Positions 7,736 through 54,283 of a stretch of DNA of 57,297 nucleotides are shown piece by piece. Below the pieces are notes generated by a model. It had not been told where the DNA came from, searched no databases, and saw nothing but the letters and a program-made list of their open reading frames with translations. Both the position numbers and the translations under genes were made by a program. The stretch comes from a virus: the IMG/VR virus record IMGVR_UViG_3300028146_000002, positions 1-57,297 of that record. The stretch is one strand, 5' to 3'. Each line of letters opens with the position of its first letter. Positions within the stretch are counted from its first letter, which is position 1.

Positions 7736-8220
7736 GCGCGCAACCGATATTGGACGCCTGCTGCGGCTCACGCATGTTTTGGTTCGACCGCAAGAACCCT
7801 GCGGCGGTGTTCGTGGACAATCGGCGGGAGCGCCACGAGTTGGTGGATAAGTCGAGCACAGGCGGCAGCCGGTCGCTGATTGTGGACCCGGATATTTTGG
7901 CGGATTTCACTTCGCTGCCATTCCCTGACGGCCGCTTTGCCCTTGTAGTGTTCGACCCTCCACATCTTGTCCGAAACGGCAAGAGTGGTTGGCAGGCAAA
8001 GAAATACGGCAAGCTGGAAGGCGATTGGAAAGAGATATTACGCCGTGGATTTGCTGAGTGCTTCCGGGTGTTGAAACCTGACGGCGTTTTGATTTTCAAG
8101 TGGAATGAGCACGAGATTCCCGTATCGCAAATCTTGGCACTAACGCCCGCCAAGCCCTTGTTCGGAAACCGATGCGGGAAGGTGGCTAAATCACATTGGA
8201 TTGTGTTTATGAAGGAATAA
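7732..8220 (+). CDS. DNA amino-methyltransferase (N6-adenine or N4-cytosine class)
   Basis: Motif I ILDACCGS and motif IV FDPPH. Confidence 0.7.
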   Translation: MSAQPILDACCGSRMFWFDRKNPAAVFVDNRRERHELVDKSSTGGSRSLIVDPDILADFTSLPFPDGRFALVVFDPPHLVRNGKSGWQAKKYGKLEGDWKEILRRGFAECFRVLKPDGVLIFKWNEHEIPVSQILALTPAKPLFGNRCGKVAKSHWIVFMKE

Positions 8221-8222
8221 CC

Positions 8223-9857
8223 ATGGACCTTCGTTGTTACCAAGATAAGGCTCACGCCGCGATCTTTGAGGCGTGGAAACGATTCGCGTCAACGTTGTTG
8301 GTGATGGCCACGGGGACAGGCAAGACCATCGTGCTCGCGCATGTCATCAAATCCATGTGGCTGAAGCGGGCGATGGTGCTCGCACATCGCACTGAACTGA
8401 TCCTCCAAGCGAAGGAGAAAATCATGGCCGTGACGGGCTTTGATGTGGAGATTGAGAAGGCTGACCTGTATGCCTGCGAGAGCCTTTACCATCGTATGCC
8501 GGTCGTTGTCAGTAGTATCCAGACCCAAATCAGCGGCCCGAAGGACAAGCGGCGGTATCTGCGGTTCAATCCTATGGACTTCGGAGTGCTCATCTGTGAT
8601 GAGGCGCATCACAGCACGAGCAAGAGTTGGAAGGAAGTCATCGCACATTATCGGCAGAATCCAGACCTGAAGGTGCTCGGGGTAACTGCGACACCCGACC
8701 GTTCGGACGGTGAGGCGATGGGTCAAATCTTTGAATCAGTCGCCTTTGAATACGGCATCCTGGACGCCATTCGCGATGGCTACCTAGTGGACATTACGCA
8801 GCAATTCGTGCGCGTCTCCACGCTGGACTATTCACATGTGCGGACGACGGCGGGCGATCTGAATGAGGGCGACCTGTCGAAGGTGATGGAGATGGAGGAA
8901 AATGTTCAGGGGCTTTGCCAGCCGTCGCTCGAAGCAATGTTTGGGCTTGCGCCCAAGACGCTGAGTGCCGTCCCGGTTCCTGATTGGAAACAGTATCTCT
9001 CGGGGCTTGGAAGGAAGCCGCGGCGAACCATCGTGTTTACGGTCTCGGTGGCACAGGCTGAGATGTGCGCCAGTGTGTTCAGCCGCGCACTGGATGGCGT
9101 TGAGTGGGTATGTGGTGAGACGAACAAGGAGAAGCGGGCGGCGATAGTTTCTCGCTTTGCGAGTGGAGACACGCATGTAGTTACAAATTGCGGCGTATTT
9201 TTAGAAGGGTTTGACAACGCTGGAGTAGAGCTAATCGTAATGGGTCGCCCAACCAAATCACGGGCGCTTTATACACAGGCCGTTGGCCGCGCCACTCGTC
9301 CGCTTCCCGGCATCGTGGATGGATTGGCGACCGCCGAAGAACGCCGTTCCGCTATTGCCGCCAGCCCAAAGCCCTTCGCCAGGATTTTAGACCCAGTGGG
9401 CAACAGCGGTCGCCATAAACTAATAAATTGCACAGACATCCTCGGTGGCCACATCTCCGAAGAAGCCCGCGAGGCAGCGGTCAAAAAGGCGATGGATGAA
9501 GGCAAGCCCGTCCGCATCATGGTCACGATGAACAATGCGGAGGCTGAGCTTGAGCGCAAAAAGCAGGAAGCGGCTGAACTCGCCCGCAAACGTGCCGATG
9601 CCCGCAAGGCTCATCTGTTGGCGCGTGCTGATTACGACATTCGTGACGTTGACGCCTTTGGCCAAACTGAGCGCATTCCGATGGGCCGTATGAGCCGAGA
9701 TGGGCGACAGTTCTCGGAGAAGCAGGCCAACGTTCTCCGTCGAGCGGGCATTGACCCGAACAAATTCGGATACCGTCAAGGGCAGGCAATTATCGGAAAA
9801 TTGATCGCAAAATGGAAGAAGGAATCAAATGAACGTCAAATGGCGACGGGTTACTAA
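8223..9857 (+). CDS. SF2 DEAH-box helicase
   Basis: Walker A ATGTGKT, motif II CDEAHH, and TATP. Confidence 0.85.
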   Translation: MDLRCYQDKAHAAIFEAWKRFASTLLVMATGTGKTIVLAHVIKSMWLKRAMVLAHRTELILQAKEKIMAVTGFDVEIEKADLYACESLYHRMPVVVSSIQTQISGPKDKRRYLRFNPMDFGVLICDEAHHSTSKSWKEVIAHYRQNPDLKVLGVTATPDRSDGEAMGQIFESVAFEYGILDAIRDGYLVDITQQFVRVSTLDYSHVRTTAGDLNEGDLSKVMEMEENVQGLCQPSLEAMFGLAPKTLSAVPVPDWKQYLSGLGRKPRRTIVFTVSVAQAEMCASVFSRALDGVEWVCGETNKEKRAAIVSRFASGDTHVVTNCGVFLEGFDNAGVELIVMGRPTKSRALYTQAVGRATRPLPGIVDGLATAEERRSAIAASPKPFARILDPVGNSGRHKLINCTDILGGHISEEAREAAVKKAMDEGKPVRIMVTMNNAEAELERKKQEAAELARKRADARKAHLLARADYDIRDVDAFGQTERIPMGRMSRDGRQFSEKQANVLRRAGIDPNKFGYRQGQAIIGKLIAKWKKESNERQMATGY

Positions 9858-40794: not shown

Positions 40795-43700
40795 TCACTG
40801 AGAGACCTCCCAATCCTTCGATATTCGGGCGCCTGTGACGCCCATCGCAGTTGCCTTTGCAATGGCGGGCATCCACATATCCATGAGACTGATTTGACTA
40901 TCAGTCATCCCGAGCCCTTCGCGCCATACATCGTGCATCGCTTCGGCGGCCGGGATTGGCAATGCGGTCTGCGTGATGTATTCCGGCCACGTATAAGGCT
41001 CAACGCCCTGCGCCCGTAGCCGCTTTGGCAATTGCGTCTTGCCGGGAAGCATTCCAAATCCCGCCGCAGGAAGCGGACGCTGCTGGAAGTCCCGCCCAAA
41101 GGCCAAGTCGGCCGTCATTCCCGCAAATGGACTGAGCTGCGTACGGGCATACTGGAAAAGCGTGTTTGCTGTGTTCTCATCCTCGTAAACGATCTTGTTG
41201 AGTTTGCCTTCATTCTTGATTCCAGACCACAGGCGCAATGGCAATCTGGCCATCGCAAGCATCGGTCCCCCATAGGCGATGTTCTGGCCTGCGATTTTGA
41301 ACTTCAGGAAGTCACTACGATTTGGGTCAGTGAAATTGATTTCCTGATCGCTTCCCATTGCGGAAAGTAGACCTTGGTTGATAGCCAAGAGCCCATACAG
41401 AGTGCCAACCACCCACGCCTTCTCTTTGACCTGCTGGACAGCGAACCACTTCTCTGCGTCTGTGGACTTCTTCCAGCGCAGGAATGTATCAGCCGCCCTG
41501 ACTGGATCGCCAACGAGCCACATAGCACGCGATGCTTCCAGTCGAGGGGCAAATAGAAGGACGTTCGTAAACTTGGGGGCGCTCTTTGCAGTGATTCCGG
41601 TGATGTGATTTACGTCATCGGCAATAGCCGCAGCCATGTCGGCTGTCTGCTTGTGCTTCGGTAGTTGGTCCCAATGATGGTTGAATATGTCCTGCCGAAG
41701 ATTCTTAAGCACGGCGTAACCACGATTACCTGCCCCTGTAACGGCGTTGAAATATTCTGCCACCTTGGGTGATATTCTATCTGCACCACTCCTGATGGCG
41801 CCAGTAATCTCGGGAATATTATATTCCTCAATTGCGTCGGGGTTGTTTTGAAGTCCCGCACGCCTCGCAACTGTGTAGTTTGGATCACTCAACAAATCCT
41901 TGCGCATCATCTGGAAGAAGGCAGGACTTTTCAGCATCCTCACCATGCGCCCGTAATTCTTGAAATACGTGCCCCAGTGCTTGGGCATATAGAACAGTGC
42001 TGGGGCATGGGTTCCAAGAGCAACAAGCCCATGAAGACCGCCACCAATCTTGAGCGAGAACATGGCTCTTGGAATGGTAGCGAGTGCTCGGAGATACATC
42101 GGAACCTGCGTGGACTTGAGCCATGTCTTGGCTTGCAGCTTGTAGCGCCACAGTGCTTCCTGCTTTCGCCACGCTTCGTCAGCCAGGAACTTCGCTCGCT
42201 TGTTCTTCGTCATCAACTCCGTGACTTGCTTAGTGCTCAGCCCAAGGTCTGATGCAACCTTGCTGCGGATCGTATCGAAATCATCCTCGCCCTTATCGAG
42301 ATACTCTTTGACCTTTTCCCAGACGCGCTTCTCAGGATTGACGCGAGCATCCGTCTCGGCCTTGGCTGCGTCAATGGCTGCTTGGCGAACTCTGGCATTG
42401 GCCGCGTCGAGAGCTTTCTTTGTGGCGATCTCCTGATCATTCGGTGGACGCGCGGATGCTTCTTTGACCCTCGCTTGATTCTCTGCGTCTGCTAAACGTG
42501 TTGCTGCTTCGCGTGCTGTCTTCTGTGACGCCTCAAGCGCCTTGCGTGCAGCATCCTCTTGCACTTTCGCAACCTCACGCTCGCGCACTGTCTGAGCAAC
42601 GCGAGCCTTGTTCTCTGCGTCTGCTAAACGGACGGCATTCTCTCGGACGGTTTTATTGGCGGCATCAAGGGCACGCTTCTCGGCGTTGCTACTGCCTGCC
42701 TGCTTCTCAAGTTCGGCATTGAGCGCAGTCTTTGCACCCTCCGCTTCGCCTTCTGCCTTCTTCACGCGACCAGCAATGGACTTGGCGGTCTTGGTTTGCT
42801 GCGGCGTGAAATCCTTATCGGTGGCGTCAGTGTAAGCCTCGCGCAAGCCTGTGAACGTCCCGGTGTCAATGTCCTGCTCGCCCTGTTGTGCCATGCCCGA
42901 CTTGTGCCACTCGGTCTGCATCGGCTTAATGCGGGCCGCCCAATCCGAACGTGCCTTCCATGCCGCGCGGTATTCAGGTGAATCGGTGCCGAACTTTTCT
43001 TCCGTGCGCCTGGCCTCGAATGCGAGTTGCCTCAAACGAGCACGAGCAACAGCAATGCCTTCAGCGGAGACGGACTTAGTTGGGTCGGACTCAAACTTGG
43101 CCATTACTGCTTCGGCAGCATTCGGGTCTTTTGCCAGCAACGCCTCGCCGCTCTGAACCGATTCGGCGGCGGCGATTCCTTCGCCCGGTGGCGGTAATGC
43201 TTCTTGTCCAGACGCAGCAACCTTCTCTCGGACACGTTGAGCCACGCCGGTAACGTCGGCACCTTCATTGGGGCCGAACTCTGACGGAGTGGCCCCACCC
43301 ATGCCGACTATTTCACCTTGAACCGGCGCTTCTCCTTCTCGTGACTCCACGGGTTGGGATTGCTCGGGTGCAACTTGTTCCAAGTCATTGCTGCTAACTT
43401 TTTCGCCTCCTTCGATGACTTGCCCCGACGGAGGTAGCTGTCCCTGATTTCCTCGTATTGCTTCGGCATTTGGCACTCCTTTCTCTGGTGTTATGGCATC
43501 AAACTCTTTGTTTGGAAATACATTCTCGTCAATCCATTTGCCCAAAGCTGGATCTTTGTCGTAAACGTCCTGTCGTAAGTCAGCCCACTCCTGCGGGTCT
43601 TCAAACATTCTTGCGGGTGGATCAATTCCAATCTCTCGCACCCTGGCATTAGCAATCAGCGGGGCTTCCTCAATCTGCCTCGCACGCTTTTTAATTGCGT

Positions 43701-44616
43701 TCTGAATGATTGCCAGTTCGTCACCTGTCTTGCCTTTGCTCATCATCCCGCCGCCGACTCTATAAACCTCGCTGAGTGTTTTGGATGCAAGAATTGGGGA
43801 CACGTCAGGCTCGGCGGCTGGAGTTGGTTCTGTAACTGTTGTAGTTACATCGGGTTCTATCTCCCCCTCAATCGCAGGCGCTGCGGGCTTTGCGCCTGCC
43901 GGGGTTTGAAGAATTGCGCCGGTTGCCAGCGGGCCCTGAACTTCGGCAGGTGAAATCCTTCCCACCATTCTGCCAACGCCGTGAGCAATCGGAAGTGCGG
44001 TGAAAGCTGTTGTCTGCAACAACTGACTTTGTAACCGCGCAATCTCATTCGGGTCTTGATCGGCTTTATTCTTTCCAAGCTCCTGCCCAAGCTTCTCCAC
44101 AACGTCAGGCGCATCAGCAAGCATCTTTATGCCCATCGCAATCATCACTGGCGTCCCGCCTGCTGCGAGGGCTGGCGCGAGTGGGGCCAACCGCATCAAA
44201 TCTTGAGCGACATGCGCGGCGGTCGCCTGTGCCGGATTGGTCTTGGCTAATTCGGCGATGTCCGCATCAACTGGAAGTTCGTCGCGTCCTTGAATTGCCG
44301 CCCAGGTGTTTTCCCACGTCTTCTGCTGTGGGCGAGCGAGAGCAAGAGAGCCAATATCAGTGCCGACGCCGCGCGCGACATTGCCAACGTCTGAAAGATT
44401 CTGCTGAATCTGCTGCGACAATTCTGGAATATCAATCGCAGGCGGCTCGGGGTTGACCTTCCCGCTTTGTAGATAGGCGCGTTGATACGGGTCGAGCTTG
44501 ATTGTAGGCGGGGTGGGCGAAGAAAGGAAATCCTCAGCCTTCGTCTTGCTGCTCAGAAAGTCATCCGCACTTTGCTTTTCCTCAAGGAATGCCGATGCGC
44601 TTTGCATGTCATTCAA
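40795..44616 (-). CDS. Large internal virion / ejection protein (T7 gp16-like position)
   Basis: 1273 aa. It is last in a series of 275, 438 and 1273 aa. It has an internal RLADAEN(K/Q)ARV repeat and hydrophobic C-terminal segments. Confidence 0.5.
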   Translation of the reverse strand: MNDMQSASAFLEEKQSADDFLSSKTKAEDFLSSPTPPTIKLDPYQRAYLQSGKVNPEPPAIDIPELSQQIQQNLSDVGNVARGVGTDIGSLALARPQQKTWENTWAAIQGRDELPVDADIAELAKTNPAQATAAHVAQDLMRLAPLAPALAAGGTPVMIAMGIKMLADAPDVVEKLGQELGKNKADQDPNEIARLQSQLLQTTAFTALPIAHGVGRMVGRISPAEVQGPLATGAILQTPAGAKPAAPAIEGEIEPDVTTTVTEPTPAAEPDVSPILASKTLSEVYRVGGGMMSKGKTGDELAIIQNAIKKRARQIEEAPLIANARVREIGIDPPARMFEDPQEWADLRQDVYDKDPALGKWIDENVFPNKEFDAITPEKGVPNAEAIRGNQGQLPPSGQVIEGGEKVSSNDLEQVAPEQSQPVESREGEAPVQGEIVGMGGATPSEFGPNEGADVTGVAQRVREKVAASGQEALPPPGEGIAAAESVQSGEALLAKDPNAAEAVMAKFESDPTKSVSAEGIAVARARLRQLAFEARRTEEKFGTDSPEYRAAWKARSDWAARIKPMQTEWHKSGMAQQGEQDIDTGTFTGLREAYTDATDKDFTPQQTKTAKSIAGRVKKAEGEAEGAKTALNAELEKQAGSSNAEKRALDAANKTVRENAVRLADAENKARVAQTVREREVAKVQEDAARKALEASQKTAREAATRLADAENQARVKEASARPPNDQEIATKKALDAANARVRQAAIDAAKAETDARVNPEKRVWEKVKEYLDKGEDDFDTIRSKVASDLGLSTKQVTELMTKNKRAKFLADEAWRKQEALWRYKLQAKTWLKSTQVPMYLRALATIPRAMFSLKIGGGLHGLVALGTHAPALFYMPKHWGTYFKNYGRMVRMLKSPAFFQMMRKDLLSDPNYTVARRAGLQNNPDAIEEYNIPEITGAIRSGADRISPKVAEYFNAVTGAGNRGYAVLKNLRQDIFNHHWDQLPKHKQTADMAAAIADDVNHITGITAKSAPKFTNVLLFAPRLEASRAMWLVGDPVRAADTFLRWKKSTDAEKWFAVQQVKEKAWVVGTLYGLLAINQGLLSAMGSDQEINFTDPNRSDFLKFKIAGQNIAYGGPMLAMARLPLRLWSGIKNEGKLNKIVYEDENTANTLFQYARTQLSPFAGMTADLAFGRDFQQRPLPAAGFGMLPGKTQLPKRLRAQGVEPYTWPEYITQTALPIPAAEAMHDVWREGLGMTDSQISLMDMWMPAIAKATAMGVTGARISKDWEVSQ

Positions 44617-45925
44617 ACTGGTCCTTGAATTGGTCCTTGAGAATCTTAACGCCGTCGTCCTTGCTCAACTTTCTAGACTGCACATCGGCCTTAACTTCGT
44701 CGGGGGTTTTGTAAGTGGAAGTTGCGGCTGGCGCGGCTGCTGGTTTCGCGGCAGTGGTATTCGTGAATGCCTTCATTTGTGCCATTAGTCCAGACCGATC
44801 TGACTCCAACCGTTCAAGCCTATTTTGTTCAGTGGTCGTCAACTGAAGCTTGGCATTCTTCGGGTTCTGCTCTGCCTCAAGTTTCCGTTTGAGTAGCGGG
44901 GCAAGCTGGCCATTTAGTCCGGTGATCTTGAATTGTATTTCCCTCGCCTTGACCGTCTCTTTGTCGTCCAGAACTTTGAATCCACCACCTTTAGGGTTGT
45001 AGATAATGTTCATGTTCTTCCCATCTGGAAGCTGCACTGTTTTCAAAACTGGCTCCGTAGTGTTAGGTGGAGTTGTAATCTTCTCCGACCGCAACACGGT
45101 CATGTCAGCGTTCGGATGCCGAGCCTTTGCCTGAAACACTTGAGCCTGATTCGTGGCGCGCGACAGTTCGTCAAAGAGTGCGCTAGTATCCTGAAGGACC
45201 AATGCCTTTTGCGCGTCCTTAATCTTCTGCGCATCAGCCGAACGCTTGCCAATCGCCTCCTGTGTGACCATCGCCCGAATCGTCGGGTCGGATGTTGCTC
45301 CAGGATGCTGCGTCAGAAATTGTGAAACACTCGGCGGCGTTGACGCATCAACTGGAAGTGTGGCTGACGCACCCCTTGGAGTCGTTGGCGTGACTGGAAG
45401 CGTCGTTGGCGCTGCCGCCGAAAGTTCTCCTGCCATATCATCCGGATTGGTCGCAGGTGCCATCAACTCGCTTCCAGGATCGGATGCTGGCGCAGCGAGC
45501 GCGGGAAGATTCGCGGACAGTTCGCCAGCAGGATCGGAAGTATCCGAGGCTGCGGCGGGATTGGTCTGCGCCTTGTGAAGTTCGCCAAGCAAATCAGCGA
45601 CGGCTTGGGCTTGGTCCGCTTTGACCTTCGCGGCATCGGCGTATCGCTTCAACTCGCCTTGCCGCCACGCATCAATGGAGTTGTTGCGTGCACGTTCGAG
45701 TTCGGCCTGCGCGTCGGCGATGGCTTTGCGCTGGCTCAATTCCGCATTGAATTGCGTGCCTTGCTGCTGCATCTTGGCAGCGTCCACCACTGAACCAAGC
45801 AATAGTTTCTGCTGCGCGAGGGCTGAGTTCTCAAGCTGCTCTCGGAGGTTCAATCCAGCGGATGCGCCAGCGGATGCCGCAGGTATCGGTTCGGCTCGCC
45901 CAAGCCATGGAGCGGAAGTAAGCAT
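44609..45925 (-). CDS. Internal virion protein
   Basis: 438 aa. The call rests on coiled coils and position. Confidence 0.4.
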   Translation of the reverse strand: MLTSAPWLGRAEPIPAASAGASAGLNLREQLENSALAQQKLLLGSVVDAAKMQQQGTQFNAELSQRKAIADAQAELERARNNSIDAWRQGELKRYADAAKVKADQAQAVADLLGELHKAQTNPAAASDTSDPAGELSANLPALAAPASDPGSELMAPATNPDDMAGELSAAAPTTLPVTPTTPRGASATLPVDASTPPSVSQFLTQHPGATSDPTIRAMVTQEAIGKRSADAQKIKDAQKALVLQDTSALFDELSRATNQAQVFQAKARHPNADMTVLRSEKITTPPNTTEPVLKTVQLPDGKNMNIIYNPKGGGFKVLDDKETVKAREIQFKITGLNGQLAPLLKRKLEAEQNPKNAKLQLTTTEQNRLERLESDRSGLMAQMKAFTNTTAAKPAAAPAATSTYKTPDEVKADVQSRKLSKDDGVKILKDQFKDQFE

Positions 45926-46752
45926 TAGAAGAACCCACCAATCAGTTTACCGATGGCACCGCCGATGCCGCTTCCTGCGGTTGCACCAGCAGGGCCACCA
46001 AAGAACCCGCCAGCAGCGCCACCAAGCCCGGTTCCAATGAGCGAACCGATGGCATCGCTGCCTTTGTTCTTCTTGCCCTTCATTGAGTTTAGGTATCGTT
46101 GGAACAATGCGCTCGAGTACGCCGCTTGAGCCTCGGGATTGGGCGCGGCTGCATTGCTGGCGTTAGTTGCCGAGATTTCGGTTTGAAGCGCCGGATTGAC
46201 GGTCTGGGTTTGGGATGTGCTGCCGACTAGACTACCAAGCCGACTCAAACCCTCAGATTGCCCTTGCAGGCTGGTCAGGCCAAGATCGCGCAGGGTGCGG
46301 TTGGTGGCCAATTCACTTCCCGGCATTCCCGAACGCACGCCGAACGTCGCACCCTCATTTTCAATCTGCTGCTTTACGTCGCCAGGAAGCTCACCGCGAA
46401 GCAGTGGCAGGATGCCTGACATGGCCGCCGTATTGCCTTCACCAAGCCCCGGAAGTTTCGCCGCAAGGTCAGTGTAAGGGTCAGGGGCACCGATTGAGCC
46501 AGGGACCAAGCCAAACGCTCCCGTGCCTTGCTGTGGTCCAGGCGTGTTGCTGTAGCCGTTCGCCGGGAGTGCCGTTCCAGCCGCCCGGTTCCCCGGCGCC
46601 GTGGTGCTGCCAAGGAGCGCCAACACGCCATATGGGTCGCGCCAGTTCTGGAATGATGCTAGCGGGTCTTTGCCGGGGACCGGCTTGAGATTCTGAATGT
46701 AGTCATGCCACTGCGGTCCTTCGGCGGCGGGTGCGTAAATTGGTTTTGCCAT
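45925..46752 (-). CDS. Internal virion protein with a glycine-zipper C-terminus
   Basis: The C-terminus is GSLIGTGLGGAAGGFFGGPAGATAGSGIGGAIGKLIGGFF. Confidence 0.4.
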   Translation of the reverse strand: MAKPIYAPAAEGPQWHDYIQNLKPVPGKDPLASFQNWRDPYGVLALLGSTTAPGNRAAGTALPANGYSNTPGPQQGTGAFGLVPGSIGAPDPYTDLAAKLPGLGEGNTAAMSGILPLLRGELPGDVKQQIENEGATFGVRSGMPGSELATNRTLRDLGLTSLQGQSEGLSRLGSLVGSTSQTQTVNPALQTEISATNASNAAAPNPEAQAAYSSALFQRYLNSMKGKKNKGSDAIGSLIGTGLGGAAGGFFGGPAGATAGSGIGGAIGKLIGGFF

Positions 46753-46753
46753 A

Positions 46754-47728
46754 TCAGAAGCAGCGTTGTTCGCCGAGTGCAGTGCGGTTCATGCCGTCAA
46801 TATTAACAGGGATGGCATCGTTCTCATTGTCCTCATCGTAAAGTTGCAGGTTCCCTTCGCGGATAGCTTTCATCTCAAACTTGGAAGCTGATTCATCATC
46901 GCCCGCACGTTCAGAGCGAATGGCCTGAATCATCATTTCCAGTGCATCCACGTTCTGGACGATGACCAGATCGGAGTCGTGAGCGACCGGGATGAACTTC
47001 AGTTTCACGAGCGCAATCACTGGTTGCCCTGATGTGCAGGTTGAGTTCGTATGAAGATCGGTGCGCAGATAGTCAGGCGAAGTCTCAGACGGTTCATACA
47101 TCGCGAGGTCAATCATGTTCGTCCCGTCGGTGGCATAGACTCGCACTGGCCCATTGGTGGCATCCTTGAGCACTCGGTCAATGCGGCGGATGCTGGTCCA
47201 TTCGATGTAAGGCACATCAAGGGACTTCTGCTGCCCATCTACCCAAGGACCGTTGCCTTTGGTGCGGATGGTTTGCCCTGACGAATCCTCACCAAACAGC
47301 GTCATCGTCTTGTTCTTGTCCAACGGGCTTTCGAGGTAGGCTCGCACTGTCGTCCAGCCGTTGGGAATGGCGGCGTACGTGGGCGATGTGCCCTGCATGG
47401 AAATCTGGCAACGCTGGCCGAGATACGACCACCAATAACTGCGGTCCCAACCTGAGCGATCATACGGCAGGAAATCGCCCCACATATTCTTTACCGGGAT
47501 GGTGGTGCGGCAGAAGTTGAGCTTGCGGATTTGCCCGACGTAACGATTCCAGACGATGCAGCCATTGCGGACGCAGGTGTAAATCGGGACCACGGTGCCC
47601 TGCCACTCGCCACGCCGCATGAAACGACGGCACGCGTCATTGATCAGCCGGGCGAATTCCCTGCTGTTCGCCGGCACGGATGCAATCTCCGGAATGGAAG
47701 ACTGCTTGCAATCAAGAAGCGTCAGCAC
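46754..47728 (-). CDS. Putative tail tubular / adaptor protein
   Basis: 324 aa, adjacent to the 847-aa nozzle-like gene. Confidence 0.35.
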   Translation of the reverse strand: MLTLLDCKQSSIPEIASVPANSREFARLINDACRRFMRRGEWQGTVVPIYTCVRNGCIVWNRYVGQIRKLNFCRTTIPVKNMWGDFLPYDRSGWDRSYWWSYLGQRCQISMQGTSPTYAAIPNGWTTVRAYLESPLDKNKTMTLFGEDSSGQTIRTKGNGPWVDGQQKSLDVPYIEWTSIRRIDRVLKDATNGPVRVYATDGTNMIDLAMYEPSETSPDYLRTDLHTNSTCTSGQPVIALVKLKFIPVAHDSDLVIVQNVDALEMMIQAIRSERAGDDESASKFEMKAIREGNLQLYDEDNENDAIPVNIDGMNRTALGEQRCF

Positions 47729-47873
47729 GGTAAAAGAGTCACGCTGTTAGCGGTAAAGTCAAGAAGTAAGGTGCCTGCTTCCGTGGATGGCTGCGGCAGG
47801 CGCGCGGGAGGTGGATGAAGTCTCGCTGGTATGAATACCGAAATGTCCAGCCTACGCTCTCACGGATTACGAT

Positions 47874-50417
47874 TTATACGGCGTCGGCATTGAGTTTGGC
47901 AAATTCAGGCGTCGGGATTGTCACTGCCTTGAACCGCGCACCCTTGAATCGGCAGTTGCCCTCGACCACCAACCGGAATTGGAAGGTATAGCCTTCGCGC
48001 AATGGGCGACCGTTCACGTTGTCAGCATCCTCGGATGACGGCTCACCGAGGCCAAGGCGTGGGCGGAATTGCGGGTCGCTATCCGGATCGAATTTCTCCG
48101 TCCATGTGCGCCACTGGACCCACTCAGGCCACTCATCGGGCCTGTAGTATGCGGTGAAGGTCACATCCTCAGTCATCTCGTCAATGTAAAACTCACCATC
48201 CAGGAGGCGCAGGCAATCATGAATGCGTGGATCATCTTGATGGAAATTGAACTGGCTGCTTTGCAGATCGTAAGTCTTCTTGGCATCACCCTCGTCATGC
48301 GTGTCACTCAATGGGCCGTCGGTGGGCAGGATTTCCCAAAGCTCCATCTTAGAAAGGTCGCTGCTGACGCACACCGCGAATTGGCGCTGAACGCCAGCGA
48401 AGCTCCCGCCAATCAATTGCAGGATATTCAGGTCTTCCCAAATGCCATCGTAAACCGCCTGAGCCTTTCCCTGTAAGCTACTCAGTGGGTCAAAGTTCAA
48501 CGCAACCAACCGAGTATGGAACACGCCGAGCGAACTTTGCACCGGACTTGATGTCACTAGCAGGCGGTTATCGAACACTGCCGCACTGGAAAACGCTAAC
48601 AGGTCGGGCGCGTCTTCCCTGAGAGTCGCGTCCACTTCCCGGCTTTGCGGCACATTTCCCCAGGTCGAGAATTCGCGACGAGCGAGTATTTGGCTCCTGA
48701 TGCCATCCAGTGCGCGGTAGAAGAAATCACTGTTGGCGAGCACGGTAGAAACCTGTCCCTGGCCGCCACTTCCAATCACTGACGGTGGGAGGATTGGGTT
48801 GGTGATGTCCTGCCAACCGCCAGCACCAATTCTGTTTACTGGGGCGAGGCACGAGAATATGGTTGTGGCCGTCAGCACAGACAGTGGCCCTTGTCCGAGG
48901 CTTTCGTCAATGGCACTGGTGGGCATGATGGCGGTTATCTTTCCCGCCGAACTCGGAACTATGAAGAACCCGCCACCGGCCAAGAATGTGTTTTCAGTCA
49001 CTCGCAGAACGGCATCACGCTTGGAGTATGCCACCGTGCCGCTGGCACCAAGCACGATGTCGCTTGCGATGAATCTCCTTCCATCGGTCAATGCCATCCA
49101 ATTCCGCCCATGCCAGTAAGCCCCCATTCGACCTGAAGGCAACTCGTTCACCGAGTTAATGGCGGCCGGATTATCCATCGCGACCCCGACGGCTGGGTCG
49201 TTCAGGTTGACCAAAAAGACCGATGTGCTCGATGCTGGCGGAGGGGTAACTGACTTTACAACGTACGCTTTGGCTTCATCAAATTGGTATTCCAGCACAG
49301 TGCCCACAGGAAGCGTGAAGGCTTGCGTGAATGTGACCGTAACATCTGCGCCAATCGCCGGGGGCATGAAGGTGGTTCCGACGGTGAACTGAGTTACGTC
49401 AGGAATCGCCGTCAACTGCATTTGGTTGTTGTTGTTCAGGAATATTGACCACGGGAGTGGTTGAGGAAACGACTGAGACGGGTCCAGTTTCGCACGAACC
49501 GTGGTTGCTGTGCTGCTGACCACAATCCAGTAAACCCGGCGCGGGCTTATGGTAGGCCAGTTATTGATAACCGTATTTTCCGTGAAGAACGTCACTCCAT
49601 TATCTGGTGGATGGAGCATCGGGCTTACGGAAATATCTACCTCTGTGTTTGTATCAAATATGTTTGCACCAGGCGCACCGTTGATTGCGGTGGAGAACCC
49701 AATTAATCCCGGCTGATAGTTGAATATCTGGCCCGCTGGCCTGGACGCCGCATTATCGCTGAGATTCGTCAGAACAACCGTAGGACTTCCCAATTGAATC
49801 GCGTAAAGGTAATTGCCAGCGTTGTTGGTAATGGAAACAATCGCATTGTTCGGACCTGAATAGGCAGGGCTTATCGTCGCGGCCACGCTTGCCCCAAGTG
49901 CCGGAACCGTTGGGCCACCTGTAATGTTCCCAAGTGACGCCACCGCCCCGGTTGATCGCCGAGAAGTCGAGCCGTCAAAGAAGACAGGCAACCTCAGTCC
50001 ATCATTCCAAATCAAGAACTGCTCGGCCTGCCATAGCCAGTTTTGAGCTGCGGTGGTCGAATTCAAATCCCCTGCAATCGTGCGCTCGTAAAGCGTGGCG
50101 TTGTTGCCCGCGATGGAGAATTGGAATAGCCGACCTGACGCCGCAATCATCACGGATTCGTTTCCCACATCCGGTTTGTAATAGGCAGCACACTGGAACA
50201 GGGCCGTCTCGAATGCGCCTTGGAGTGTGCTGTTTCCAAGATTGACGATGCTTAACTTTCGGAATGCTCCCCTTGGTCGAACGAATTGCCCGCGCACGGT
50301 CCCGTTGGTCAGGTTCGCCAGTTGGTTGCGGGGAAGGTTCTGCGGGTCAATACCGCTGTTCATGCCGAGTTCAAAGGAACCCAGCGCATCGAACAGAGTC
50401 CTCGGGGTGAAGGCCAT
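47874..50417 (-). CDS. Putative tail tubular protein B (nozzle)
   Basis: 847 aa. The call rests on size and its order relative to the internal virion proteins. Confidence 0.4.
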   Translation of the reverse strand: MAFTPRTLFDALGSFELGMNSGIDPQNLPRNQLANLTNGTVRGQFVRPRGAFRKLSIVNLGNSTLQGAFETALFQCAAYYKPDVGNESVMIAASGRLFQFSIAGNNATLYERTIAGDLNSTTAAQNWLWQAEQFLIWNDGLRLPVFFDGSTSRRSTGAVASLGNITGGPTVPALGASVAATISPAYSGPNNAIVSITNNAGNYLYAIQLGSPTVVLTNLSDNAASRPAGQIFNYQPGLIGFSTAINGAPGANIFDTNTEVDISVSPMLHPPDNGVTFFTENTVINNWPTISPRRVYWIVVSSTATTVRAKLDPSQSFPQPLPWSIFLNNNNQMQLTAIPDVTQFTVGTTFMPPAIGADVTVTFTQAFTLPVGTVLEYQFDEAKAYVVKSVTPPPASSTSVFLVNLNDPAVGVAMDNPAAINSVNELPSGRMGAYWHGRNWMALTDGRRFIASDIVLGASGTVAYSKRDAVLRVTENTFLAGGGFFIVPSSAGKITAIMPTSAIDESLGQGPLSVLTATTIFSCLAPVNRIGAGGWQDITNPILPPSVIGSGGQGQVSTVLANSDFFYRALDGIRSQILARREFSTWGNVPQSREVDATLREDAPDLLAFSSAAVFDNRLLVTSSPVQSSLGVFHTRLVALNFDPLSSLQGKAQAVYDGIWEDLNILQLIGGSFAGVQRQFAVCVSSDLSKMELWEILPTDGPLSDTHDEGDAKKTYDLQSSQFNFHQDDPRIHDCLRLLDGEFYIDEMTEDVTFTAYYRPDEWPEWVQWRTWTEKFDPDSDPQFRPRLGLGEPSSEDADNVNGRPLREGYTFQFRLVVEGNCRFKGARFKAVTIPTPEFAKLNADAV

Positions 50418-51262
50418 TATTGATGGCGCAGTGCGGTGCGGAGTTGATTCTGCTTGAAGGCGATTGCGGCGATGGTCGCGGCAAGATCGAGATTGGTCAC
50501 GCTGAGTTCAACATGCCCGTAGCCCTCAGTGAAGGCAGTCACCGCACTGGCGATGATTTCTAGCGTTTGGCCGGCAGTGCCCGTGTTGGCCGCGGTGATT
50601 GCGGTTCCGGCTTGGCTTGCCCCGGTTGCGTATGTTCCAGACACCGATATGACGCCGCCAGTGGTTGCCGCAGTGTTGATTCGAGTCGTCAGTGTCGCGG
50701 CCTTCGCGCCTGTGGTAATGGCGATGTCGCAACGGAAGTTCGCGGAATTGACCTGAAAGGCGTACGGAATGACCGTCTCCCAAAGCTGGCTGTTCACCAA
50801 AAGCGCCATGCTGAATGGGCCAATGATGAGTGCATTGCGGACGCAGGTGGCGGCAATCGTGTCGGACTTCGTGCCGCCGCTGTTATCGGTGAATGCGGTG
50901 AGCGCGTCCAAGTCCCACGCCACGGTCTGATCGCCCATTCCCGGCATCACGAGTGCGCCTGATGCCACGGTGCCGCTGGCTGAATCGCCAACGAGTCCAA
51001 GGAATCGCCCCGTGATTGCGGTGGCCGAATCAACCGAAATGATGATGAAGTTCGCCTGCTTTGAGCCGTCGGAGATGAACAGGTTCTTGCCTGCCTTCAT
51101 CCAACTCGTGTCGCCGAGAGAGATACTGACGGTGCTGCCAATCGCGGGCAGCACGAAGCTTGCTGATGTGGTGGTTATGCCGCTGGCGCCAGTTGAGCCG
51201 GGAATGTTGGTCGTCGTGGGCGTGCTGCAACAACTCGGCACGCAAGGCGTAGTGGCACTCAT
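50417..51262 (-). CDS. Hypothetical structural protein
   Basis: 281 aa, T/S/A/G-rich. First gene of the minus-strand late operon. Confidence 0.4.
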   Translation of the reverse strand: MSATTPCVPSCCSTPTTTNIPGSTGASGITTTSASFVLPAIGSTVSISLGDTSWMKAGKNLFISDGSKQANFIIISVDSATAITGRFLGLVGDSASGTVASGALVMPGMGDQTVAWDLDALTAFTDNSGGTKSDTIAATCVRNALIIGPFSMALLVNSQLWETVIPYAFQVNSANFRCDIAITTGAKAATLTTRINTAATTGGVISVSGTYATGASQAGTAITAANTGTAGQTLEIIASAVTAFTEGYGHVELSVTNLDLAATIAAIAFKQNQLRTALRHQ

Positions 51263-51298
51263 GCAACGGCTTTACACCCTTTCTTGCGATGTGGCAAC

Positions 51299-51331
51299 CA
51301 AATAAAAAGCCGCAACCTTTCGGCTGCGGCT
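51299..51331 (-). terminator. Intrinsic-terminator-like hairpin on the minus strand, inside a divergent intergenic region
   Basis: AGCCGCA..CC-tttc-GG..TGCGGCT (51308..51331). On the minus strand it is followed by TTTTTATTT. Confidence 0.45.
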
Positions 51332-51469
51332 CTGGAGGGCGGCTTTGGGGACGCCAAGGATACCGCTTGCCACTTTGCTCGCATTGGCGTTAGTGTCAAG
51401 CCTACAGTGCCGATTTTCCGAAAATATTCTGTCGCCTTCCCGGATGGTTACGATCTGTTGAAGGCTGAG

Positions 51470-54283
51470 ATGTATATGATTCGGAACGGGGGCCAGTGGG
51501 CAGACAAGAAGACGGGCAAAATCTACGGCAACGGGCTTTCGTATCACTACGAGGAAATGCGTAAGCTGCTTTGGCCGCATCTGGATTCACACAGGTGGCA
51601 TGTGTTGTGTCGGGATGAAATCCTGAAGAATAAAATTACAGTCCTCATGGGGCCTGGCTCAAGTGCCAAAACGCATTCAGCGGCATGGATCTATTTGTGT
51701 GAATATTTGTGCCTGCCAGATGAGACGTTGGTTCTCGTAAGCTCCACAGATATGCGCGGGCTTCGGTTGCGTGTGTGGGGTGAGATTTCCGATCTGTGGC
51801 AAAAGGCGCTCGACAAATACGATTACCTTCCAGGGAACTTGCTTGATAGCCGAGTCGCAATCACGACGGACATGCTTGAAGATGACGATTACGACGATGT
51901 GCGCCGAGTGCGTGATATGCGCAAGGGCATCATTGGTATTCCAACAATTCAGGGCGGCAAAAATGTGGGCATCGGAAAATGGTGCGGGGTAAAGCAAAAG
52001 CGAGTGCGATTGGTCGCGGACGAAGCCTGCTTCCCTGCTGGTCAAATGGTAGATACCCCAACGGGCCGAAGGCCGATTGAATCCATCAAGGGTGGCGATT
52101 TGGTTTTCAGTGCTGCCGGAATCTGTTGCGTGCGTGCAACAATGTCGCGCACCGTTCATGCATTACTGCGAATCAAAACCAGAAGCGGGCAAACGATAAC
52201 CTGCACGCCGGCGCACCCAATTTTTACATCAAATGGGTGGAAATGTGCTTGCCATCTCAACCAAGGAGATATTATGGTAAGCACATATGAAGCAATGTCA
52301 ATTTTGCGGGAAGGAATACCAACCAGTCAGCAACAACAAGGCGTGTCCGGAGTGTCGCGAGAAGATGATATATCGGAACTGCAAGCAGTGTGGACAACGG
52401 TTCCAGAAATCTCGAATCAACGACACCGTGGAATTTTGCGGAAGGAGTTGCACCGGGAAATGGGCATTAACCAATCCAGAGCGACGGGCGAAGTTCTTCA
52501 CCGAGGCGCGCACTCAGAAAATTCAGCAGTCGCGCAAGGAGTTGTTTGCGGCCCACCCGGAACGCTTTGTCGAGATGCGAGCCAAGATTGGAGAGGGCGC
52601 GAGAAAGTTCAATGCGTCATTGACGATGGAGCAGCGGATCGAGCGCGGCAAGCAGTCGAGCCTTCGGATGAAGGCGCTCGGCCACAAACCGAAAGTGCGC
52701 GGCGGGAATGGAACTGGACCAACGCAAGCGGAGTCGCTGCTTCTCAAATTGCTTCCCGATGCAGCGTGGAACTATCCAGTCAGAACCGGGATGAAAAGCG
52801 GAAGCGGATTTCCAACTTCTTACAAACTGGATCTGGCGATGCCATCAATCAAGTTGGGGATCGAAGCCGATGGGGCATCTCACAAGATGTTTTCACGCGC
52901 ACAGCAGGACGCGAAGAAGGTTTCATTTCTGGCAACGATAGGGTGGATAGTGTTGAGGTTCTCAAACAAAAGGATTTTGAACGATACGGAGGCAGTGAAA
53001 GCGGAGTTGTCGTCTATAATCTTGAGATTGAAGGACACCCAAGTTACTCCGTAAACGGATTCTTGGTTCACAATTCACTGATGGGTCCATCGTTCCTCAG
53101 TGCTTTTTCAAATCTTAATAACAATGCAGATTTCAGAGCAATCATACTCGGAAATCCTGTTGATATAACCGATCCTCTCGGAATCGCTGCCGAACCCATT
53201 GATGGATGGGGCACCGCAACGATGGACACCGAAAAAACCATCGTGTGGGACACGAAGTTTATGAACGGTCGGTGCGTCAACTTAATCGGCACCGATAGCC
53301 CAAATTTCGACTACCCAGAAGGAGAAAAAGAAAAGTTCCCGTATCTTATCGGCCCTCGAAAGATTCGGGAAATTCTCAGCGGGTTCTCCAAAGACTCGCC
53401 CGAGTTTTACAGTCAAGCAGTCGGCAGCATGAAGATTAGCCAGATGGCTCGCCGCGTCATCACGCGGTTGCTCTGTCGTAAGTATGGCGCATTGGATCAA
53501 CCAATCTGGAAAGGCACCAGCCGCACCAAGATTTGCTCACTGGACGCAGCGTATGGTGGCGACCGCTGTATGATTGGGTGGGGCGAGTTCGGTGCTGACG
53601 TGAACGGCAAGGACATCCTGGCCGCATATCCGCCCGTAGTCGTGCCGATTATCGTGGGCAAGGATGATGTTGAGGATCAGATTTCAAAGTTCGTCAAACG
53701 CTTCTGCGAGGACAATGGCATCCCGCCTGAGAATTTCTTTCACGACTCAACGGGACGCGGCACGCTCGGCACCGCCCTTGCCCGCCATTGGTCGAATGCC
53801 TGTAACCCGGTTGAATTCGGCGGCAAGCCTACGGCGCGACCAGTGTCGCTGGATATGTTCGTCATGGATGAGGAAACGAAGGTGCGCCGGCTGAAACTCT
53901 CGTTCGAGCACTATTACAATTTCGTCAGCGAACTCTGGTATGCCGTGCGCTACACCATTGAGGCGAACCAGCTTCGGGCGCTCAGTGAGGAAGTGATGGA
54001 TGAGGGTTGCAAGCGCGAATGGGATTGGGTTCCCAAGGGTGGCATGAAGGTCATCCAGGTCGAGCCGAAGGAGATAATGAAGGAACGGACACGGCAATCC
54101 CCGGACCAGTTTGATCAGTTGGCGATTCTGGTCGAGGGCGCCCGTCGTAAGGGCTTCCAAATCTCCAAGCTGGCTAATTCATCGGTTGAGGTTGATGATG
54201 ATGCTCTGGACGCGGATGAAGAAGCGTACCAGAATGTATTGAAGAAATCGCTGCTACAACACGAACAGTATGCTATGGCTTAA
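51470..54283 (+). CDS. terL: Terminase large subunit interrupted by an intein
   Basis: Walker A GPGSSAKT. Walker B LVADEA is followed by an intein Cys. After HN|S the frame resumes SLMGPSFLSAFSNLNNNADFRAIILGNPVD. The start at 51470 is inferred. Confidence 0.85.
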   Translation: MYMIRNGGQWADKKTGKIYGNGLSYHYEEMRKLLWPHLDSHRWHVLCRDEILKNKITVLMGPGSSAKTHSAAWIYLCEYLCLPDETLVLVSSTDMRGLRLRVWGEISDLWQKALDKYDYLPGNLLDSRVAITTDMLEDDDYDDVRRVRDMRKGIIGIPTIQGGKNVGIGKWCGVKQKRVRLVADEACFPAGQMVDTPTGRRPIESIKGGDLVFSAAGICCVRATMSRTVHALLRIKTRSGQTITCTPAHPIFTSNGWKCACHLNQGDIMVSTYEAMSILREGIPTSQQQQGVSGVSREDDISELQAVWTTVPEISNQRHRGILRKELHREMGINQSRATGEVLHRGAHSENSAVAQGVVCGPPGTLCRDASQDWRGREKVQCVIDDGAADRARQAVEPSDEGARPQTESARREWNWTNASGVAASQIASRCSVELSSQNRDEKRKRISNFLQTGSGDAINQVGDRSRWGISQDVFTRTAGREEGFISGNDRVDSVEVLKQKDFERYGGSESGVVVYNLEIEGHPSYSVNGFLVHNSLMGPSFLSAFSNLNNNADFRAIILGNPVDITDPLGIAAEPIDGWGTATMDTEKTIVWDTKFMNGRCVNLIGTDSPNFDYPEGEKEKFPYLIGPRKIREILSGFSKDSPEFYSQAVGSMKISQMARRVITRLLCRKYGALDQPIWKGTSRTKICSLDAAYGGDRCMIGWGEFGADVNGKDILAAYPPVVVPIIVGKDDVEDQISKFVKRFCEDNGIPPENFFHDSTGRGTLGTALARHWSNACNPVEFGGKPTARPVSLDMFVMDEETKVRRLKLSFEHYYNFVSELWYAVRYTIEANQLRALSEEVMDEGCKREWDWVPKGGMKVIQVEPKEIMKERTRQSPDQFDQLAILVEGARRKGFQISKLANSSVEVDDDALDADEEAYQNVLKKSLLQHEQYAMA
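52028..53074 (+). mobile_element. Intein (349 codons) inserted after Walker B of terL
   Basis: Block A CFPAGQMVDT, block B TCTPAHP, and blocks F/G VYNLEIEGHPSYSVNGFLVHN followed by +1 Ser. Confidence 0.85.
52287..53054 (+). CDS. Zinc-ribbon plus Vsr/DUF559-like PD-(D/E)xK nuclease ORF in the +1 frame of the intein (candidate nested homing endonuclease)
   Basis: CQFCG..CPEC and CKQCG..CGRSC zinc ribbons. TQAESLLLKLL...YKLDLAMPSIKLGIEADGASH...DAKKVSFLATIGWIVLRFSN is the DUF559 pattern. Confidence 0.65.
   Translation: MKQCQFCGKEYQPVSNNKACPECREKMIYRNCKQCGQRFQKSRINDTVEFCGRSCTGKWALTNPERRAKFFTEARTQKIQQSRKELFAAHPERFVEMRAKIGEGARKFNASLTMEQRIERGKQSSLRMKALGHKPKVRGGNGTGPTQAESLLLKLLPDAAWNYPVRTGMKSGSGFPTSYKLDLAMPSIKLGIEADGASHKMFSRAQQDAKKVSFLATIGWIVLRFSNKRILNDTEAVKAELSSIILRLKDTQVTP

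Follow-up and report, generated by a model that had tools for sequence, protein, structure and literature searches.

A predicted EDxHD-type homing endonuclease gene in the +1 frame of a contiguous intein in a divergent phage terL gene

The stretch of viral DNA analysed here (57,297 nt, IMG/VR virus record IMGVR_UViG_3300028146_000002; hereafter the window, meaning this stretch at its full length) contains a gene for a divergent phage large terminase subunit, terL. Its Walker-B motif is probably interrupted (VADEA|S, the bar marking the junction) by a class-1 intein that is contiguous and harbours a homing endonuclease (HEN) gene in an alternative frame, intein and nuclease together constituting a composite mobile element. 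The nuclease, a member of the DUF559 family of the EDxHD (Vsr-like) type, is encoded on the same strand as terL, in the +1 frame of the intein. The positions on which an earlier reading of this DNA had been built (the original prediction, made from the sequence alone), namely an intein start at 52028 and the nuclease-frame landmarks 52278, 52287, and 53052, were all found to be exact, and the 127-bp direct repeat shared by both ends of the window is present as the terminal overlap described therein.

The host frame is free of stop codons from 51284 to 54283 on the plus strand, comprising 999 codons from a TTG in the open reading frame (ORF) list. Within the intein, the +1 frame is closed by a TAA at 52278, opens with an ATG at 52287, and terminates at 53052-53054, and the third frame contains 14 stops across the nuclease stretch. 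In the +1 register, each host codon takes its first base from position 3 of one nuclease codon and its other two from positions 1 and 2 of the codon after it; a host stop requires a nuclease codon ending in T before a codon starting with AA, AG, or GA. The window nuclease contains 70 such at-risk junctions, and not a single one of the preceding codons ends in T, as against 37 of the 184 other codons. When synonymous codons were permuted within the ORF, the host frame remained open in none of 100,000 permutations (P < 1e-5), the mean number of stops being 8.3. The same avoidance is evident in three terL-bearing relatives (loci L001, L002, and L003, with permutation means of 6.8-11.4 stops), such that T is found at 0/70, 0/68, 0/70, and 0/53 at-risk junctions in the window, L001, L002, and L003, respectively (261 in total). 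The original prediction had asserted that a stop-free off-frame of this length would not be expected by chance, and chance is indeed excluded as the cause of the open host frame. An open frame as an intrinsic property of DUF559 coding was ruled out with a negative control of 54 ordinary DUF559 genes (mostly from Brevundimonas) which match the nuclease family in the catalytic domain only, none of which has a long frame spanning well past both ends of the ORF. A +2 or antisense host frame was also ruled out, both being closed in all loci. We infer from the genetic code that meeting both constraints costs essentially nothing in the +1 register, because stops begin with T and the change from NNT to NNC is always synonymous.

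The phase of substitution was determined from the mismatches in seven pairs of related loci, sorted by host codon position (1/2/3). Counts of 300/199/525 were obtained for the 5' extein (n = 1024), 68/47/152 for the intein N-domain (n = 267), 450/183/208 for the nuclease overlap (n = 841), and 509/356/946 for the C-intein together with the 3' extein; in other words, the wobble phase shifts to host position 1 (the third position of the nuclease codon) precisely in the overlap and reverts thereafter. Amino-acid identity over the overlap nucleotides is 44.5% in the nuclease frame versus 29.0% in the host frame (terL group, 12 loci, 66 pairs). The order is reversed in the last 15 codons of the overlap, where conservation in the same group is 0.79 for the host frame versus 0.64 for the nuclease frame, and because the host frame is the more conserved there, the stretch at about 52931-53054 is considered functional in both frames, with the motifs GW.VLRFSN in the nuclease frame and RVD.VEVL...VYNLE in the host frame. 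Selection in the overlap thus acts on the nuclease protein while also purging host-frame stops, and the roughly 215 host codons preceding the dual-function stretch are only kept open. That the host frame is held open by selection had been presumed in the original prediction, and the zero-T rule, together with collected homologues that keep both frames open, bears this out.

The arrangement recurs among relatives of the nuclease. Ten relatives at 38-63% identity were retrieved from a large protein database, and seven of their contigs were inspected: four with terL-like host genes (L001, L002, L003, and L007), two with helicases (L004 and L005), and one short fragment (L006). The nuclease was found in the +1 frame of a stop-free, intein-containing host frame in all seven. 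The distance from the first codon of the intein to the nuclease ATG is exactly 259 nt, and that from the nuclease stop to the intein end 20 nt, in the window as well as in L001-L003. A scan of IMG/VR with the single nuclease protein returned no relatives, and an alignment-based scan succeeded with at least 294, the best 80 of which were fetched. Counting these together with the earlier loci, 87 out of 88 place the nuclease in the +1 register of a host reading frame 390-2228 codons long, which runs hundreds of bases past the nuclease on both sides wherever the contig allows. Species-representative genomes furnished 12 contigs from metagenome-assembled genomes with full-length relatives, all 12 in the +1 frame, and overall the same-strand +1 overprint is present in 102 of 103 full-length loci (87/88 plus 15/15). 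The layout persists down to about 30% nuclease identity and across five host gene types, the nuclease frame being intact in every locus examined.

Host-frame junctions in nearly all loci conform to hhhhDE|CF.(A/S)GT..DT ... NG.LVHN|(C/S), as located with intein hidden Markov models (HMMs), and the nuclease stop is positioned 8-65 nt before the intein end. The host genes encode ResIII/DEAD helicases (32 loci), SNF2 helicases (30 loci), the terL-like group of the window (14 loci), a second terminase-like group (4 loci), giant SNF2 proteins (2 loci), and a clamp-loader AAA+ protein (1 locus), and the intein always resides at or beside the Walker-B DE of a P-loop NTPase, be it TerL, a ResIII/DEAD or SNF2 helicase, or the clamp loader. 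The same hidden ORF exists in GenBank phages, including Corynebacterium phi673 (gp43, NC_042354.1), Pseudomonas MR14 (gp44, MT104474.1), and Vibrio 1.194.O (NVP1194O_69, MG592563.1). Each of these three records (L088-L090) names one long coding sequence (CDS), the labels being ‘DNA helicase’, ‘putative helicase’, and ‘coil containing protein’, and leaves the +1 nuclease ORF unannotated. Altogether 37 Vibrio phage records match the nuclease, and the named hosts of the sequenced phages include Vibrio lentus and V. cholerae. The opposite occurs in metagenome gene calls, which pick up the nuclease and leave the host gene truncated or split; an exhaustive HMM search at E <= 1e-30 yielded 707 cluster representatives at 50% identity, almost all of which are 135-340 residues long, i.e., called as separate small ORFs. 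Two loci contain a second intein-like insertion: in L011 (terL-like), at the P-loop (GCAG|CVRGDTKLL...FIHHN|SGKS), besides the Walker-B intein, and in L068 (helicase), late in the helicase (...FVVHN|CEEG), with LAGLIDADG-like motifs.

Table 1. Positions of the terL precursor, the intein, and the overprinted nuclease gene in the window.
Feature	Position	Strand	Basis
terL (large terminase subunit) precursor gene, probable extent	51407..54283	+	Frame stop-free from 51284; ORF list, gene call P0017
N-extein: ATPase domain from the terL start through Walker A (GPGSSAKT) to Walker B (VRLVADEA)	51407..52027	+	Sequence
Class-1 intein, 349 amino acids	52028..53074	+	CFPAGQMVDT ... TCTPAHP ... VVVYNLEIEGHPSYSVNGFLVHN|S
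N-terminal splicing domain (blocks A and B)	52028..52285	+	Intein N-domain HMM score 146
Predicted RNA hairpin ending at the nuclease AUG and enclosing the only Shine-Dalgarno-like AAGGAG (52263-52268)	52243..52286	+	Folding
Host-frame read-through linker, about 215 codons, without motifs or stops	52286..52930	+	Sequence, model
Predicted homing endonuclease gene, DUF559 / EDxHD (Vsr-like), 255 amino acids	52287..53054	+	+1 frame of the intein
Two CxxC...CxxC zinc ribbons: C4, C7, C21, C24 and C32, C35, C50, C54	52296..52448	+	Sequence
RGGNGTG loop, R138-G144, between helical region and catalytic domain	52698..52718	+	Conserved columns
Catalytic domain, about residues 147-251; D182, E193, D195, H199, D208 invariant	52725..53039	+	Alignments, 3hrl, I-Bth0305I
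Stretch functional in both frames: nuclease C-terminal strand and helix, and intein C-terminal splicing domain	52931..53054	+	Motifs
C-terminal splicing domain (blocks F and G, ...VVVYNLEIEGHPSYSVNGFLVHN)	52931..53074	+	Intein C-domain HMM score 87; aligns to solved inteins
C-extein: remaining ATPase domain and RNase-H-like nuclease domain, starting with the Ser +1 nucleophile	53075..54283	+	Sequence, model

Profile searches on both frames corroborated the identities put forward in the original prediction, with the +1 ORF matching Pfam DUF559 (PF04480, E 9e-12, 45.3 bits against a cut-off of 20.6, residues 178-242) and the host frame matching Pfam Intein_splicing (PF14890, 42.4 bits against a cut-off of 35.8). 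A profile search of the PDB with the nuclease retrieved the DUF559 protein 3hrl at E 3.5e-12. A structural model of the nuclease built from 11 sequences attained a mean predicted local distance difference test score (pLDDT) of 85, and its top Foldseek match was the catalytic domain of I-Bth0305I, 3r3p_B (probability 1.0, template modelling score (TMt) 0.70), with 3hrl also matched (probability 1.0, TMt 0.72). Across 11 members of the nuclease family, E193, D195, H199, and D208, as well as D182, are unchanged and fit the EDxHD signature. The N-terminus consists of two Cys4 ribbons and helices; the ribbon region gave weak Pfam DZR_2/DZR matches at about residues 3-55 and is modelled as beta-hairpins with pLDDT 82-91, and no NUMOD match was found in the nuclease by Pfam. 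A match of residues 2-63 to a PHROGs ‘HNH endonuclease’ family (E 1e-5) was rejected as a zinc-ribbon resemblance, since the protein has no HNH catalytic motif and its C-terminal domain is clearly DUF559/EDxHD. Within the RGGNGTG loop, R138, G139, G140, N141, and G142 are invariant and T143 and G144 are at least 90% conserved (family alignments A1 and A4), residues 136-142 are modelled with pLDDT below 50, and no counterpart was identified in Vsr or I-Bth0305I. The host-frame string RREWNW, which recurs in relatives, is simply these codons read one base early. As judged from alignment and model, the nuclease is a complete EDxHD/Vsr-like PD-(D/E)xK enzyme with intact signature residues and is predicted to be active.

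All catalytic residues of the intein are present, namely Cys1 (52028), the block B TPAH, the C-terminal His-Asn (LVHN), and the +1 Ser (53075), the C-terminus reading ...SYSVNGFLVHN up to 53074 and then Ser. These residues are kept in relatives, in which the +1 residue is mostly Cys, with Ser in the window. Once the linker is left out, the splicing domain resembles the solved inteins of Pyrococcus CDC21, PhoRadA, and DnaB, the DnaX mini-intein, and gp41-1. No nuclease domain was detected by Pfam in the host-frame reading of the intein. The precursor model shows the linker without secondary structure and at pLDDT 25-40, the alignment there comprising only 4 intein-bearing sequences, and its hydrophobic fraction is 0.24 (range 0.22-0.29) versus 0.34 for the extein (range 0.32-0.35); the linker is a stop-free, unconserved, and probably unstructured segment.

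The host gene itself was recognised through structure. The spliced extein has no match in Pfam or PHROGs, and a 9-sequence extein profile gave no significant terminase match among PDB sequences. As sequence profiles failed, the identification draws on Foldseek matches of an AlphaFold precursor model (53 sequences), in which the extein is modelled with pLDDT >90 and the C-extein with pLDDT of about 80-98 across most of the region. The matches include the Sf6 gp2 large terminase (E 2e-8) and the E217 TerL nuclease domain (TMt 0.63), followed by T4 gp17, HK97, and P74-26 TerL, and the model displays the two-domain TerL fold, with an ASCE ATPase containing Walker A and B motifs and an RNase-H-like nuclease. 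On this modelled structure, the host gene is a divergent terL with the intein in its Walker-B motif (VRLVADEA|S), and the terL identity in the original prediction holds on structural grounds, even though Pfam and PHROGs give no terminase match. The public gene call on the 57,297-bp contig, P0017, starts at a GTG (51407) and encodes 958 residues, this GTG being the probable terL start. The TTG at 51284 is argued not to be the real start by a GC-rich, terminator-like inverted repeat (AAAAAGCCGCAACCTTTCGGCTGCGGCTCT) at 51303-51333, which falls in the gap (51263-51406) between a minus-strand gene (50417..51262) and the probable start. As for the remainder of the window, nine of the ten large ORFs tested have no functionally annotated PHROG match (one matches a family of unknown function only), and these include minus-strand ORFs at 40795-51262 that are likely to be structural genes; only the helicase at 8196-9857 was recognised by PHROGs. 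Contigs related to the window cluster at about 54-58 kb.

The distribution of the element among terL genes is sporadic. Over 1,100 proteins belong to the extein family, and among the best 120 homologues, 116 are 585-656 residues long without an intein domain and are taken as intein-less, and only 4, the window included, carry an intein. The site is precisely empty in a TerL, 74% identical, that is encoded on a syntenic contig of 56.9 kb (L157), with ...RLIADEA|ALMGPSFLSAFSNLN against ...RLVADEA|SLMGPSFLSAFSNLN in the spliced window; at the insertion point, L157 reads RLIADEA|ALMGPSF and the spliced window reads RLVADEA|SLMGPSF. The DNA of this type of empty site is ...CGACTCATCGCCGACGAAGCC|GCGCTTATGGGG... 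Such sporadic presence and absence at a precise site is a classic homing signature. L157 also contains an HNH endonuclease gene (L157:5417-6022, 201 residues, PF01844) three genes downstream of terL, the counterpart position in the window having small unrelated ORFs only, and this is a further sign of homing endonuclease gene (HEG) traffic around terL in this phage group.

Two loci depart from the common layout. The sole family member that is not overprinted is found in L009 (2995-5458), where a free-standing gene encodes a 217-residue nuclease, 52% identical to that of the window, with its 3' end overlapping the start of an intein-less terL by 11 nt, which is the classic spot for a free-standing phage HEG beside its target gene. 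The Walker-B region of the L009 TerL reads LIGDELAQMGG, in comparison to ADEAQFMG or ADEAALMG in close relatives, and could be a target-site immunity variant. The original prediction had envisaged a contiguous terL intein whose +1 frame holds a Vsr/DUF559 homing nuclease of the free-standing type, and both this free-standing relative and the recurrence of the overprint across the family support it. In the helicase locus L158 (420-2890), one ORF of 496 residues (P0231) joins N-extein and N-intein to the nuclease, and the C-intein/C-extein frame is still stop-free back over the whole nuclease, one indel from the usual layout. The cause is a sequencing error or, failing that, a nascent fractured gene or N-intein-HEN fusion. 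The further suggestion of an intermediate on the way to a split or fractured gene found no support as a description of a transient state, given the depth of divergence and the number of host gene types over which the layout persists, with only L158 possibly frameshifted.

Contiguous inteins with alternative-frame HENs are a kind already known, having been documented recently and sparsely. The Synechocystis (cyanobacterial) DnaX intein carries a LAGLIDADG HEN in its +2 frame, for which a per-frame selection analysis was given (Gorbalenya 1998, as cited in bioRxiv 10.64898/2026.09.14.751524). Among actinobacteriophage inteins, antisense LAGLIDADG, antisense VSR-like/EDxHD, and frame-3 EndoVII-like nucleases have been reported, several of these inteins being located in TerL and their in-frame part being unstructured (bioRxiv 10.1101/2025.01.02.630785). 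Alternative-frame HEN inteins have been proposed to originate when a free-standing HEG invades a mini-intein (bioRxiv 10.64898/2026.09.14.751524; bioRxiv 10.1101/2025.01.02.630785). Such alternative-frame and antisense HEN inteins resemble the window in that they are contiguous, their host frame is stop-free yet unstructured, the HEN ORF is delimited by a start and a stop of its own, the HEN frame is the one that purifying selection tracks, and TerL is a frequent host. The properties that set a non-canonical intein apart are all found in the window, where the host frame is open beyond chance, the in-frame reading is unfolded and unconserved, and selection is on the HEN frame. Unlike those described, the element in the window combines a same-strand +1 EDxHD nuclease with a near-universal register, about 700 cluster representatives, and Walker-B DE sites. 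The literature contained no same-strand +1 EDxHD nuclease in a contiguous intein that we could find, and as the search was incomplete, this amounts to absence of evidence only. The arrangement had been called unusual in the original prediction, which is correct of the same-strand +1 EDxHD form and not of alternative-frame or antisense HENs in contiguous inteins in general. What is new is the conjunction of an EDxHD nuclease, the same strand, the +1 register, and Walker-B sites, and also that the +1 overprint is the near-universal, long-lived state of a large nuclease family, neither a curiosity nor a transient intermediate.

Three other systems merit comparison. Taylor et al. (2011, PMC3239194) defined the EDxHD motif and reported that I-Bth0305I cleaves the uninterrupted host gene beside its own insertion site. 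The window nuclease shares with it the catalytic fold, the E, D, H, and D residues, and a multidomain organisation with a putative DNA-binding part at the N-terminus, and both are phage-borne and tied to a self-splicing element in an essential DNA-metabolism gene. I-Bth0305I differs in its association with a group I intron of recA and in its NUMOD and helix-turn-helix modules, while the window nuclease, known from sequence, has two zinc ribbons, a helical region, and the RGGNGTG loop, and is overprinted on an intein. In the fractured genes of Dassa et al. (2009, PMC2677866), a Vsr-like or GIY-YIG HEG lies between split-intein halves, including those of terminase, with the 3' end of the HEG overlapping the C-intein part by 6-69 bp and a phage origin being inferred. 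The nuclease superfamily, the terminase and helicase hosts, and the overlap of the nuclease 3' end with C-intein coding (block F here) are common to both. Fractured genes differ in having the host gene in two trans-spliced ORFs, whereas the window host frame is continuous and actively stop-free: the stop after the N-intein that marks a fractured gene is absent, the frame being unbroken over 51284..54283 and likewise in 102 loci. The model of Dassa et al. has no out-of-frame contiguous state (PMC2677866). Last of the three is the ShiLan type, in which an out-of-frame HNH nuclease is hidden in a phage methylase insertion whose host frame has no stops and is read through (Arsenault et al. 2025, PMC11855218). 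It resembles the window in placing a homing nuclease in an alternative frame of a read-through insertion and differs in lacking splicing domains, so that the insertion stays as a loop in the mature protein, whereas the window intein would remove its linker.

According to the explanation that we favour, ribosomes translating terL would produce a precursor, the splicing of which would restore DEA-S and an active terminase, and separate internal initiation at the AUG at 52287 would yield the nuclease. In co-infection, the nuclease would cut an intein-less terL near the Walker-B codons, and repair would copy in the intein and the nuclease. The two would travel as one unit among the Walker-B sites of TerL, SF2 helicases, and the clamp loader, and it is by common descent and such joint movement that the fixed +1 register is most simply explained. 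A wider formulation, to which we would assign slightly less than an even chance, is that these composite elements constitute a large lineage, undescribed in the literature searched, in which a mini-intein has been joined at the DNA level and not the protein level to an always-+1 EDxHD nuclease. The element would be a Walker-B specialist that hops as a unit, and the +1 overprint would be stable and adaptive, because stop removal by NNT to NNC costs the nuclease nothing and because translation of the nuclease would be subordinated to read-through of the host gene.

Several observations weigh against this explanation. The sole Shine-Dalgarno-like motif of the window is 18 nt from the nuclease AUG and inside the predicted hairpin, and no start signal is conserved across the TerL group. 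The hairpin (minimum free energy -24.1 kcal/mol, z = -3.2, with 1 of 200 shuffles folding as well) resembles translation-attenuating hairpins reported upstream of free-standing HEGs and is not conserved in L001, L002, L003, or L008, and its role in nuclease translation is uncertain. Many of the helicase-hosted loci have Shine-Dalgarno-like runs 6-10 nt upstream of the nuclease start and the terL group is without them. Part of the reason for the low linker pLDDT could also be the shallow alignment of intein-bearing sequences. Besides, the TerL insertion point varies by 0-3 codons (DE|C, DEA|S, DEAQ|C, DELSF|C) among the junctions compared, namely those of the window (52027/53075; DEA|S), L001, L002, L003, L008, L010, L012, L015, and L026. 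The difference complicates a single-target homing model and suggests independent insertions at neighbouring codons or sliding of the junction.

The alternatives have to be judged against the same evidence. That two compensating indels, introduced in sequencing or assembly, have displaced the truly in-frame nuclease of a canonical intein is conceivable given that short-read metagenome assemblies can carry indels and that the N-intein of L158 is in frame with its nuclease. A truly in-frame nuclease would, however, leave the host frame unselected and with about 8 stops, where none is seen, and a stop in the nuclease frame itself precedes the ATG by two codons; the identical register (259 nt and 20 nt) recurs in independent assemblies, and the layout occurs throughout the 102 loci, GenBank phages included. 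We give such an artefact practically no credence, and the compensating indels that the original prediction had named as a possible refutation are excluded by the stop-free host frame and the recurrence of the layout in about 100 independent assemblies. It is very unlikely, too, that the nuclease ORF is an unexpressed or inactive remnant within an intein that persists because splicing is obligatory. Decay of the HEN after fixation is what the homing-cycle model predicts, the TerL group has no conserved ribosome-binding site, and a hairpin covers the nuclease start in the window, all of which would suit a relic; against it, the nuclease frame is intact wherever examined and its catalytic residues are invariant, substitutions gather at nuclease third positions with nuclease-frame identity exceeding that of the host frame, and intein-less alleles are still the majority, so that targets exist.

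The nuclease might otherwise be made as a fusion, by programmed frameshifting from the terL frame, or the intein might be split and trans-splice despite the open frame. As L158 demonstrates, a single ORF can fuse N-extein, N-intein, and nuclease; several loci have a nuclease frame that stays open ahead of the ATG, and the fractured genes of Dassa et al. employ related nucleases with a similar 3' overlap. In the window, however, a TAA stands two codons ahead of the ATG, the ATG is conserved at its homologous position in the TerL group (where it gives M-K/I-x-C), and no slippery heptamer was seen upstream (by eye, not tested formally); moreover, about 215 stop-free linker codons are only sensible if ribosomes reach the C-intein, and we regard frameshifting and trans-splicing as highly improbable. 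A non-homing role for a co-opted nuclease, such as DNA processing or the exclusion of rival phages through cleavage of their terL or helicase genes, with the intein as a safe harbour, is unlikely. It would accord with the stability of the architecture over deep divergence and with the free-standing L009 relative beside terL, which resembles inter-phage competition nucleases. Cutting rival alleles and copying in is nevertheless homing in mechanistic terms, which makes competition an added benefit more than an alternative, and the sporadic occupancy of a precise site bears the homing signature already mentioned.

The finding has practical as well as evolutionary bearing. It carries a lesson for annotation, as gene callers, in the contigs inspected, either split the host gene or bury the nuclease beneath a long CDS labelled ‘helicase’ or ‘coil containing protein’. 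Since very long insertions are evidently tolerated by the splicing domains, these are possible candidates for engineering. Sequenced phages, i.e., phi673, MR14, and the Vibrio lentus and V. cholerae phages, would permit direct work on splicing, initiation, cleavage, and homing, provided that the phages are available. In the overlap, moreover, about 255 codons are shared by two frames, a clean natural case of long dual coding that is simply explained at the codon level. How inteins gain their homing endonucleases is an old question, and the model in which a mini-intein is invaded by a free-standing HEG has few intermediates. Many related states are now found within one family: a free-standing gene in L009, about a hundred +1 overprints, a possible one-indel fusion or fractured variant in L158, and abundant empty sites.

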